A DNA stretch of 27,958 bases from Candidatus Woesearchaeota archaeon (GTDB taxonomy: Archaea > Nanobdellota > Nanobdellia > Pacearchaeales > GW2011-AR1): NCBI GenBank assembly GCA_964366295.1, contig CAYITH010000001.1, forward strand, positions 1-27,958, given 5' to 3'. A program made the translations under genes and the position numbers. Below the pieces are notes generated by a model. That model searched no databases and was not told the DNA's origin. It saw only the letters and a list, made by a program, of their open reading frames with translations. Positions 1-2,886 of this stretch are shown one piece after another (positions within the stretch are counted from its first letter, which is position 1; the number at the start of each line of letters is the position of its first letter).

Positions 1-1056
1 ACTATAGGGCTTCTTGACGGAAAGCAGATTAATGTCTTAAGAAAAATGACTTCTGGAGTTCCTGGAAAAATAAGGGCAGGGGGACAATGCTTAGCTCCAG
101 ATACCCTTGTTAATGTAGAAAATAAAGGGCATATTAAGATAGAAGAAATTGAAGAAAGTGACAATATACTGGGGATTAATTTTGAGGATATGAGTCAAGT
201 ATATAATAAATGCCTAAAAAAATGGAGAGTTAATAAAAAAGAGTGGCTATCTATTTATACCGACAATAATAAAGAGATATTTGCATCATTAGACCATACA
301 TTTTTCTCATTTAAAGATAAAAAGATTATTGAGTTGCCTGCTGAAAAATTATCTCTTGGGAATGCCCTGATAGATGAAAAAGGTAGAATAGCAAGAATTA
401 TCTCAATAAATAACAATAGAATTGAGAGAGAGTTAATAGATTTAGAAGTAGAAAATCATAACTTTATTGCAAATGGACTGATTGTTCATAATTCTTCTCA
501 GCGATTCGAGCGCATCACAGAAAATCTTGCGAAAGAATTTTTCAGGCGAGTCAGCGCTGCAATGAAAGAATGCTTTTTTGACAACAAAAAGCTAAAAGGA
601 ATTTTAATTGGTGGGCCGGTTCCGACAAAAGAAGAATTCCTAAAGGAAGGCGAGTTAGTTACAACTTTGAAGGATAAGGTTCTTGCTGTGAAAGATTTGG
701 GAAATACTGATGAATCCGGATTGGAAGATCTTGTGAACTTGTCGCAGGACATATTGGCACAACAGGAAATTATACATGAAAAAAAGGCGCTGGAAGAATT
801 TTTCTTCACGCTCGGAAAAGAACCCGACAAAGCAGCTTACAAGGAAGAAGATGTCCGCAAGGCGTTAGAATACGGCGCTGTTCGCAAGATTATATTATCA
901 AAAAAACTTGAAAAGAGCAAACTGAAAGAGTTTATGGAAAAGGCAAATGAGATTTCTGCAGAATTTGAGATAGTTTCAATAGAAACTCCAGAAGGCCAGC
1001 AATTCTGGAACCTCGGCGGAATTGGAGCTTTGTTGAGATATGGGATTGGAAAGTGA
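1..1056 (+). CDS. prf1: Peptide chain release factor aRF1 (eRF1 family), 5'-truncated by the window edge, intein-containing
   Basis: The frame is open from base 1 (TIGLLDGKQINVLRKMTSGVPGKIRAGGQ), so the track's Met at 46 is internal. GGQ-[intein]-SSQRFERI reconstitutes the GGQS..RF motif. ILIGGP in domain 2 and the C-terminal LGGIGALLRY are typical of aRF1. Confidence 0.96.
   Translation, partial: TIGLLDGKQINVLRKMTSGVPGKIRAGGQCLAPDTLVNVENKGHIKIEEIEESDNILGINFEDMSQVYNKCLKKWRVNKKEWLSIYTDNNKEIFASLDHTFFSFKDKKIIELPAEKLSLGNALIDEKGRIARIISINNNRIERELIDLEVENHNFIANGLIVHNSSQRFERITENLAKEFFRRVSAAMKECFFDNKKLKGILIGGPVPTKEEFLKEGELVTTLKDKVLAVKDLGNTDESGLEDLVNLSQDILAQQEIIHEKKALEEFFFTLGKEPDKAAYKEEDVRKALEYGAVRKIILSKKLEKSKLKEFMEKANEISAEFEIVSIETPEGQQFWNLGGIGALLRYGIGK
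88..492 (+). other. Mini-intein (135 aa, Hint domain only, no homing endonuclease) inside aRF1
   Basis: Begins CLAPDTLV (block A), has SLDH (block B, TxxH variant) and DLEVENHNFIANGLIVHN (blocks F/G), followed by Ser+1. Hand count gives ~28% GC (121-480) versus ~41% in the C-extein (541-900). Confidence 0.95.
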
Positions 1057-1090
1057 GTAAGATTTTTCTGGGAAAAAATAGGTCTATGAA

Positions 1091-1117
1091 AAGCTTTATA
1101 TACTCGGCATATATGCC
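1091..1117 (+). promoter_or_regulatory. Archaeal BRE/TATA promoter plus palindromic operator candidate for the first TA operon
   Basis: AAGC-TTTATATA at 1091-1102, a perfect 12-bp palindrome GGCATATATGCC at 1106-1117, and ATG at 1132. Confidence 0.5.
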
Positions 1118-1131
1118 ATATATACATTAAA

Positions 1132-1371
1132 ATGGTACAAGCAGTAATTGATATACCTGAAGAAGCAAATCATATATTGAACATAGTGAAAGCGAGGTAT
1201 AACCTAAAAACAAAAAGCGAAGCTATTGCGAGAGTTGTGCTAGAACGCGGGGGAGAGATACTAGAACCTGAGATAAGGCCAGAATATTTAGAAAAACTTA
1301 AAAGAATGTCTACTGAAAAAGGAATTCCTTTTAAGAATATTGATGAACTAAGAAAAATCATTGAGGGATAA
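1132..1371 (+). CDS. Putative antitoxin, DUF2683-like (ribbon-helix-helix type)
   Basis: The N-terminus MVQAVIDIPEEANHILNIVKARYNLKTKSEAI resembles archaeal DUF2683 proteins. Its stop abuts the ATG of a RelE-like toxin (TAAATG). Confidence 0.75.
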   Translation: MVQAVIDIPEEANHILNIVKARYNLKTKSEAIARVVLERGGEILEPEIRPEYLEKLKRMSTEKGIPFKNIDELRKIIEG

Positions 1372-1638
1372 ATGTACAATTATGAGATACAGCCTTTGCT
1401 ACAAAAAATTCTTAATAAATTATTGAGGAAAGATAAAGCTCTATATGAACAAGTAATGAAAAAGATTGAAGAAATTATAAACACTGGAGATGTTGAGCAC
1501 TATAAAAATCTTAGATACAATTTAAAGGATTATAAGAGAGTTCATGTTGGCAGTTTTGTTCTTGTCTTTAAATTTGACAAAGGTTTTAATCTTATAATAT
1601 TTGAGGATTTTGACCACCATGATAACATATACAAGTGA
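1372..1638 (+). CDS. RelE/ParE-superfamily toxin
   Basis: 88 aa basic protein with KNLRYNLKDYKRVHVGSFVLVF and C-terminal DFDHHDNIYK, coupled to the upstream antitoxin. Confidence 0.8.
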   Translation: MYNYEIQPLLQKILNKLLRKDKALYEQVMKKIEEIINTGDVEHYKNLRYNLKDYKRVHVGSFVLVFKFDKGFNLIIFEDFDHHDNIYK

Positions 1639-1671
1639 AACATTTAAAACTGCCAATTCCAATATTTAGTT

Positions 1672-2886
1672 ATGAGAATAATGGCGGACTTGCAGATACA
1701 CTCGCGTTATGCGCGGGCAACGAGCAAGAACATTACTATTGAAAATCTTGAAAAATATGCGCAAATTAAGGGAATTAACATTTTAGGGACGGGCGACTTT
1801 CAGCATCCACTTTGGAATAAAGAGATTAAGGAAAAATTGAAAGAGGATGATAAGGGAATATTGCGGACTGCCGGAGGGTTTCCATTTTTATGGCAGACAG
1901 AGGTAAGTTTGATGTTCTCTCAAGGCGGAAAAAGGAGAGCAGTTCATTTATTAATTTTTGCGCCAAATGGCGAGATTGCTGACAAAATAACTGCTTTTCT
2001 TGGAAGTAAAGGCCGGCTGGATTATGACGGAAGGCCAATATTTGGAATGAGCTGCAAGTACCTGACAAATGAGCTGAAAAAGATAGATGGCCAAATAGAA
2101 ATAATTCCAGCGCATGCTTTTACTCCATGGTTCGGAATGTATGGAAGTGAGAGCGGATTTGATTCTATTGCCGAGTGTTTTGAAGAAGAAGCAAAACACA
2201 TTCACGCTATAGAAAGTGGAATGTCAGCAGATCCTGCGATGATATGGAGATTAAAAGAAAGGGTGAATATAGTTTCTTTCTCAGATGCGCATAGTTTCTG
2301 GCCTTTTAGATTAGGAAGAGAGGCAACAATATTTGAAATTCCTGAATTAAGTTATATTGAGATTATGAAGGCAATTCTAACAGGCGATGGCCTTGTTGGG
2401 ACAATTGAAACTCCGCCCGAATATGGAAAGTACCACTATGATGGGCATAGAAACTGCAATTTTTCCTGCTCGCCTGAAGAAACAAAAAAGATAAACGGAA
2501 TCTGCCCTGTTTGCAAAAAAGAATTGATTATAGGCGTTGAGAACAGAATTGACGAGATTGCTAAAGAGAAGACCGGTTTTAAGCCAGATAATGCAAAGAG
2601 TTTTTATTCTATATTGCCTTTGCAGGAGCTGATTGCGCTGGCTTATGGGATGCGAATGGAAAGCAAAAAAGGATGGGAAATTTATAATTTATTGATAGCG
2701 CAATTTGGAAATGAGTTTAATATATTGTTGAATGTTTCAAAAGAGGAACTTTTGCTAAAGAAAGTCAATAATGCTTTAGTTGATTTAATCTTGCTTGGAA
2801 GAGAAGGAAAGCTGAAAGTCAAACCGGGATTTGATGGAGAGTATGGGGTTGTGCAGATGCCGGAGAAGCAGGGGAGATTGGCGTAA
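1672..2886 (+). CDS. Endonuclease Q family protein (PHP domain plus Zn finger)
   Basis: DLQIHSRYARATSK, QTEV, PAHAFTPWFG, ESGMSADP, SDAHS, LGRE, GKYHYDGHRNC...CPVC and C-terminal PGFDGEYG. Confidence 0.88.
   Translation: MRIMADLQIHSRYARATSKNITIENLEKYAQIKGINILGTGDFQHPLWNKEIKEKLKEDDKGILRTAGGFPFLWQTEVSLMFSQGGKRRAVHLLIFAPNGEIADKITAFLGSKGRLDYDGRPIFGMSCKYLTNELKKIDGQIEIIPAHAFTPWFGMYGSESGFDSIAECFEEEAKHIHAIESGMSADPAMIWRLKERVNIVSFSDAHSFWPFRLGREATIFEIPELSYIEIMKAILTGDGLVGTIETPPEYGKYHYDGHRNCNFSCSPEETKKINGICPVCKKELIIGVENRIDEIAKEKTGFKPDNAKSFYSILPLQELIALAYGMRMESKKGWEIYNLLIAQFGNEFNILLNVSKEELLLKKVNNALVDLILLGREGKLKVKPGFDGEYGVVQMPEKQGRLA

Follow-up and report, generated by a model that had tools for sequence, protein, structure and literature searches.

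The first gene of the window (the whole 27,958-nt stretch of DNA analysed here, from a groundwater DPANN archaeon of Pacearchaeota/Nanoarchaeota type) codes for a polypeptide release factor, aRF1, whose catalytic GGQ loop is interrupted by 135 residues. This raises the question of whether the insert is a functional intein and what its removal would mean for translation termination. Frame 1 of the forward strand is open from base 1 to a TGA stop at 1054-1056 and reads ...PGKIRAGGQ/CLAPDTLV...FIANGLIVHN/SSQRFERI..., the slashes marking the borders of an insert that corresponds exactly to window positions 88-492 (405 nt, with no stop codon). The GGQ motif forms residues 27-29 of the aRF1 fragment. 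The flanks of the insert match eRF1 domain 2 (PF03464, E 4.9e-22), domain 3 (PF03465, 7.2e-21) and the aRF1 family TIGR03676 (E 1.7e-54). Base 1 of the window is base 1 of contig C1 in an assembly of 725 kb and 102 contigs, estimated to be 80% complete, and the contig start truncates aRF1, leaving 87 nt of it before the insert, so that its ~145 N-terminal residues are absent. This loss, together with the splitting of the match by the insert, explains why the fragment scores 185 bits, below the TIGR03676 cut-off of 234.7, while full-length intein-bearing homologues reach 391-403 bits. Sequence comparison and structure prediction lead us to conclude that the only aRF1 gene detected very probably harbours a functional class-1 mini-intein, whose splicing would be a necessity and is most likely constitutive, and that this intein represents one state of a widespread, patchy allele.

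Protein sequence analysis and predicted structural homology both assign the insert to inteins. It matches the Pfam profile Intein_splicing (E 5.7e-18) and those of the intein N-terminal region (TIGR01445, 2.1e-8) and C-terminal region (TIGR01443, 2.3e-5), and a profile search of its 135 residues found no LAGLIDADG or other endonuclease domain. Alignment A2, composed of 62 mini-inteins from the aRF1 GGQ/S site, has eight invariant residues (C1, W46, S67, H70, D118, F126, H134 and N135), and none of the eight varies among 235 inteins of this site, mini and large. The AlphaFold2 model obtained from A2 (pLDDT 97.6) predicts an all-beta HINT fold of 13 beta strands that occupies the entire length of the insert. 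Foldseek yields 67 PDB matches at E<=0.001, the best being the gp41-1 intein 6qaz (TM 0.83/0.88, rmsd 2.0 Å, 30% identity); the 50 matches listed are mostly inteins and otherwise HINT domains (bacterial intein-like, BIL2, hedgehog). Comparison of the sequence profile with the PDB also finds 6qaz, at E 2.4e-16. The structural and sequence hallmarks of class-1 inteins are present: predicted HINT fold, Cys1, S67 and H70 of block B, D118 of block F, H134-N135 of block G, and Ser+1. The endonuclease domain that lies between the splicing regions of homing LAGLIDADG inteins is missing.

Orthologues without the intein run uninterrupted through the site, as expected for an in-frame insertion. One of them, P0020 (locus L023), has an extein 92% identical to that of the window and reads GGQSSQRFERIT. 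Positions 626-713 of L023 share 85% nucleotide identity with window 1-88, and positions 718-1868 share 77.5% with window 498-1650, a segment that includes the two genes downstream. L023 is thus collinear with the window on either side and differs by precisely the 405-nt insert. A sequence-only reading of this DNA had called a mini-intein exactly at the GGQ/S site of aRF1, lacking a homing endonuclease and regenerating GGQS upon splicing. The junctions, profile matches and HINT-fold model agree with the call, the insert has no endonuclease match, and P0020 displays the loop that splicing would restore. The features are listed in Table 1.

Table 1. Features of the interrupted aRF1 gene, in window coordinates
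Feature	Position	Strand	Basis
aRF1 N-extein fragment, ending in the catalytic loop ...PGKIRAGGQ, with Gln as residue -1	1..87	+	Translation; TIGR03676 positions 145-174 match window 1-90
Probable class-1 mini-intein, 135 aa, HINT splicing domain alone, without endonuclease	88..492	+	Pfam, TIGRFAM, AlphaFold2, Foldseek, PDB profile
Cys1 (TGC), block A, predicted nucleophile of the N-S acyl shift	88..90	+	Invariant in 235 aRF1-site inteins and in alignment A2
Block B S67-L-D-H70, S-x-x-H form of TxxH	286..297	+	S67 and H70 invariant in 62 and 235 homologues
Block F Asp118	439..441	+	Invariant in 62 and 235 homologues
Block G His134-Asn135; the terminal Asn is predicted to cyclise and free the intein	487..492	+	Invariant; TIGR01443 match to residues 118-135
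Ser+1 (TCT), first C-extein residue, predicted trans-esterification nucleophile, native Ser of GGQS	493..495	+	Intein-free alleles: GGQ-S-(S/A)-x-R-F
aRF1 C-extein (remaining domain 2 and domain 3) with TGA stop	493..1056	+	PF03464, PF03465; TIGR03676 positions 174-319 and 358-402

The aRF1 gene is followed by two adjoining small ORFs on the same strand (window 1132-1371 and 1372-1638), coding for 79 and 88 aa. The second begins directly after the stop of the first and gives weak, sub-threshold ParE/RelE-like matches (E 1e-3 and 3e-4). The two may encode a toxin-antitoxin pair, and the intein-free relative L023 shares this DNA in syntenic position. Further downstream, a 404-aa ORF (window 1672-2886, plus strand) has no Pfam match at E<=0.01; its N-terminus (DLQIHSRYARATS) presumably resembles those of PHP-domain/EndoQ-type nucleases.

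Host and intein each have known counterparts. Once the intein is taken out, what remains is an ordinary aRF1 with GGQS, like canonical aRF1/eRF1 (TIGR03676; PDB 4af1, 3agk, 1dt9), and P0020 matches 4af1 at E 4e-65. The window gene departs from the canonical ones in the interruption of its GGQ loop and in the N-terminus cut by the contig end, and these DPANN exteins are short (~360 aa). The gp41-1 (6qaz, 6riz) and Npu and Ssp DnaB mini-inteins (4o1r, 1mi8) have the same minimal HINT fold of ~125-155 aa as the window intein (TM 0.83-0.88, rmsd ~2 Å, 26-30% identity), but their hosts are phage or bacterial helicases, and their insertion sites and lineage are unrelated to the aRF1 intein. The gp41-1 intein, naturally split, also has Cys1 and Ser+1. 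Closest in position are the large inteins of the aRF1 site in other DPANN archaea, for example P0123 (named 'hypothetical protein, Candidatus Pacearchaeota archaeon' at NCBI), which interrupt the same host at the same GGQ/C...HN/S point. Their splicing blocks are homologous, with C1, W46, SxxH, D, F and HN invariant as in the mini-inteins, but they measure 420-510 aa and carry LAGLIDADG_3, accompanied by HTH_3 in the ~500-aa class.

The main text of a census of inteins from 2015/16 (PMC4760082) reports few inteins in core translation components, lists aIF2 as a host and makes no mention of release factors. The aIF2 inteins of that text and the aEF2 intein of the present genome also interrupt functional sites of conserved, essential GTPase/translation-factor genes, in another protein family and at another site than GGQ/S of aRF1. 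A published description of an intein at the latter site was found neither in the open literature searched nor in the main text of the census. Judged from its sequence, the window element is a real mini-intein of ordinary type, belonging to an allele that is common and apparently unpublished, with a canonical GGQ and a predicted mechanism of the standard type.

The commonness of the allele is apparent at several taxonomic scales. In the GTDB family, sampled with one genome per genus, ~19 of 100 genera have an intein at the site: 6 a mini-intein (ORF ~500 aa), 11 a large one (ORF 750-880 aa) and 2 fragmentary intein-bearing genes. The remaining ~81 genera have an empty site and an ORF of 362-390 aa. 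An even phylum sample of 400 genomes, each at least 90% complete, has an intein at the exact site in 58 genomes from many families. The 54 inteins parsed fall into lengths of 130-151 aa (20 inteins), 421-431 aa (8) and 470-510 aa (26); the large ones carry LAGLIDADG_3 and a 502-aa example has HTH_3 as well. Mini and endonuclease-bearing kinds coexist in each of the GTDB families f14, f24, f26, f32 and f42. In the protein collection, mini-bearing aRF1 accounts for more than 110 clusters (90% identity) among the best 120 matches listed, all reading GGQ/C...HN/S, and large-intein aRF1 for 478 clusters at 90% identity. A related-locus search with one protein as query gave six loci. Source names of the intein-bearing homologues point to Pacearchaeota, Woesearchaeota and Nanoarchaeota, and some copies are named 'peptide subunit release factor 1 (eRF1)/intein/homing endonuclease' by JGI. 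The screening of aRF1 homologues for GGQ/S insertions proposed in the sequence-only reading has therefore uncovered hundreds, and the window copy is far from unique.

Two variants of the allele deserve mention in their own right. In the ~500-aa inteins, a Cro/C1-type HTH_3 domain (E 1.5e-9; L025:758-2263, genome G063) lies beside LAGLIDADG_3, perhaps serving as an additional module for DNA recognition. Four intein-bearing aRF1 genes of family f24, in the same class (loci L049, L068, L073 and L095 of genomes G290, G132, G255 and G188), read GGW/C...HN/SQQRY instead of GGQ. The catalytic Gln is replaced by Trp in these genes, which bear either mini or ~430-aa inteins.

Intein and extein histories were compared, as the sequence-only reading had suggested, and the two sets of trees have different topologies. 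In the splicing-domain trees, which are quick IQ-TREE searches on short alignments (~139 columns), the label mini or endonuclease-bearing needs a single change, the separating branch having an SH-aLRT of 93 in the database sample, chosen by similarity, and 97 in the phylum sample. For extein trees of the same proteins the figure is 13 in the phylum sample and 24 in the database sample, where well-supported branches impose no fewer than 14 of the changes. The intein of the window groups with P0004, P0007, P0016 and P0017 (SH-aLRT 97), and its extein with intein-free P0020, P0116 and P0118 together with P0006 (SH-aLRT 98). In AU tests of groupings picked after inspection of the trees, the intein-tree grouping of the window copy is incompatible with the extein data (p-AU 2e-69), and the intein data are compatible with a placement beside the extein neighbour P0006 (p 0.145) or among the ~430-aa inteins of its own family (p 0.25). 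In the phylum sample, identity between large inteins is hardly related to that of their exteins (Spearman 0.16; intein more similar in 22% of pairs), and that between mini-inteins follows the host moderately (Spearman 0.65). Since the different states of the site lie dispersed over the tree of host aRF1, and the grouping of the inteins is strongly rejected by the extein data, horizontal replacement of the site occupant, either the element or a gene segment carrying it, appears well supported by these phylogenies.

The proposal that the window intein is a horizontally acquired remnant of a homing element is upheld in its first part. LAGLIDADG versions at the same site, the patchy distribution and the conflict between intein and extein trees all indicate a mobile allele. 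Its origin as a remnant is less certain, because the mini-inteins stand apart from the endonuclease-bearing ones in the trees, yet the intein data leave room for descent from the family's own ~430-aa intein. A fairly recent loss of the LAGLIDADG domain by the ~430-aa homing intein that circulates in the family, as opposed to descent from an old endonuclease-free lineage, would fit the position of the endonuclease in the large versions, where the mini-intein has a short linker (intein residues ~95 to ~104), and the spread of mini lengths from 130 to 151 aa, as expected from independent deletions. The tree uniting the mini clade with the 430-aa inteins of the family also survives the AU test. 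However, the maximum-likelihood trees of both samples set all mini-inteins beyond one branch, the splicing domain of the window intein is only 37-40% identical to those of large inteins as compared to 56% for the nearest mini-intein, and the insert retains no trace of endonuclease sequence. We consider recent decay unlikely on this balance.

Base composition does not help to date the arrival of the element. The intein has 28.6% GC, compared to 41.4% in the N-extein fragment, 40.5% in the C-extein and a genome mean of 36.3%, and it lies at the 3rd percentile of the 405-nt windows of the genome. The hand counts of the sequence-only reading (~28% versus ~41%) were accurate, but low GC had to be rejected as a specific sign of recent transfer because the five further inteins of the genome whose GC was determined (GyrB intein 1, MetK, aEF2, RtcB and SufB) are all likewise AT-richer (31-35% GC) than their exteins (36-43%). 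AT-richness is a general property of inteins in the conserved housekeeping genes of this genome.

The ~0.7-Mb genome is rich in such elements. GyrB has two inteins, one of them with LAGLIDADG, and SAM synthetase, aEF2, RtcB and SufB have one each, so that the intein-bearing translation factors are two, aEF2 and aRF1. The HINT loci of the genome (G000; L033-L038) are found at C3:17758-22491, C3:13803-16322, C47:1954-5577, C11:3-2207, C13:5215-7830 and C20:1355-4762. A 1136-aa protein of the same genome has a PT-HINT domain.

The aRF1 gene would be translated into a precursor whose GGQ loop carries the 135-aa HINT domain at its tip. Excision is expected to start with an N-S acyl shift at Cys1, followed by trans-esterification onto Ser+1, cyclisation of Asn135 helped by His134, and an O-N shift. 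These reactions would join Gln(-1) to Ser(+1) and leave a scar-free aRF1 with a native GGQS loop. Before splicing, the HINT domain at the loop tip would block catalysis, the precursor being expected not to reach the peptidyl-transferase centre, which would render splicing obligatory. Neither a second aRF1 nor the missing N-terminus was found in the 80% complete assembly (TIGR03676 at E<=10; tblastn with the P0020 N-terminus). In five relatives with a mini-intein, at least 92% complete, no gene but the intein-bearing one exceeds the aRF1 cut-off; three of the five also have a weak further TIGR03676 match (~45 bits, ORFs of ~365 aa), which is probably Pelota. As no second aRF1 is detected, we infer that an active release factor requires splicing. 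The single aRF1 detected here and in the five relatives is in line with the dependence of termination on splicing that had been advanced from the sequence.

The genome also codes for an Mtq2/HemK-related archaeal methyltransferase (G000:C25:7325-7867, minus strand; TIGR00537, 96.4 bits, above the family cut-off). Such an Mtq2-type enzyme likely methylates the GGQ glutamine after splicing, and the presence of this Gln methyltransferase is consistent with a normal GGQ factor.

Most likely, and as far as sequence can tell, the intein is a selfish element of the ordinary kind that splices itself constitutively. The empty site, the mini-intein, the ~430-aa LAGLIDADG intein and the ~500-aa LAGLIDADG intein with HTH would be states that cycle among DPANN archaea by homing and recombination, and the endonuclease-free copy would persist only because its imprecise loss would destroy an essential gene. 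The mini lineage could be more than a decaying remnant, a stable alternative occupant that shields the aRF1 GGQ site from the aggressive LAGLIDADG inteins of its communities, or its splicing could be condition-dependent and gate the supply of release factor; we find either very improbable. If true, this would be an intein with a host-level role in the translation termination of ultra-small archaea.

The sequence-only reading had suggested a conditional switch. In such a scheme splicing would await a cue such as redox state, metal or temperature, and the intein would tune termination post-translationally by keeping aRF1 inactive meanwhile. There is precedent in the conditional splicing documented for some archaeal and bacterial active-site inteins (Topilina et al. 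2015, on RadA, as cited in the text of PMC4760082), and because the insertion sits in the catalytic loop of the only aRF1 detected, anything that slowed splicing would be felt in termination. The proposal finds no support in the window sequence, which shows none of the traits of known switches. The catalytic residues are all canonical, residue +1 is Ser and not Cys, and the only other Cys of the intein, C42, is present in 26% of homologues, so that no conserved second Cys, at +1 or internal, could pair with Cys1 as a redox trap. Close relatives dispense with the intein, both P0020 with its 92% identical extein and ~81% of the genera of the family. The best structural match, gp41-1, is a very fast splicer. 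We regard a conditional switch as very improbable and maintain constitutive splicing as the preferred reading.

There is next to no chance that the assembly of a complex metagenome wrongly fused the intein to aRF1 at a conserved repeat. The contig does begin within the gene, shortly before the intein, and word depth in Logan data from four groundwater runs rises five- to ten-fold at window 51-100, coding for GGQ, and 451-500, coding for blocks F and G. The loose ends at these two segments run into intein-free alleles of other species (GGQ-SQHRF..., GGQ-SSQRFH...) or into different inteins, which indicates that both segments are common to many aRF1 and intein alleles of the community; the contig break inside the gene was probably caused by these shared segments. 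Against a misassembly, the window sequence is present in several groundwater metagenome runs of two studies. Logan contigs with 0-1 mismatches cover 28-481 (run X3), 459-1500 (X1), 459-1248 (X2) and 138-519 (X4, from the other study) and bridge both junctions independently, which makes the misassembly that would have overturned the original call unlikely. The same in-frame architecture recurs moreover in hundreds of independent assemblies.

The source metagenomes contained no intein-free allele of the same strain, only alleles of other species with 43-47-nt matches and 2-5 mismatches. A single 'joint' from 73 to 588, skipping 514 nt, was rejected as an intein-free allele since it is off the intein borders and comes from the contig of another organism.

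Equally negligible is the possibility of a dead element, with a HINT domain that has lost its splicing activity in an aRF1 copy without function: nothing direct speaks for it, other than that a genome 80% complete could conceal another aRF1, and it is contradicted by the intact reading frame, the retention of all invariant catalytic residues, the close similarity of the extein to an intact intein-free orthologue and the lack of any other aRF1 found here or in the complete mini-intein-bearing relatives.

With a probable functional mini-intein at its catalytic GGQ loop, aRF1, a translation-termination factor, joins the list of intein hosts, in keeping with the rule of intein insertion into the best-conserved active-site DNA. 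Small, canonical Cys1/Ser+1 mini-inteins like this one are possible parts for protein engineering. An allele that exists in four states and hundreds of copies provides a rich natural data set on the homing cycle in uncultured DPANN archaea.
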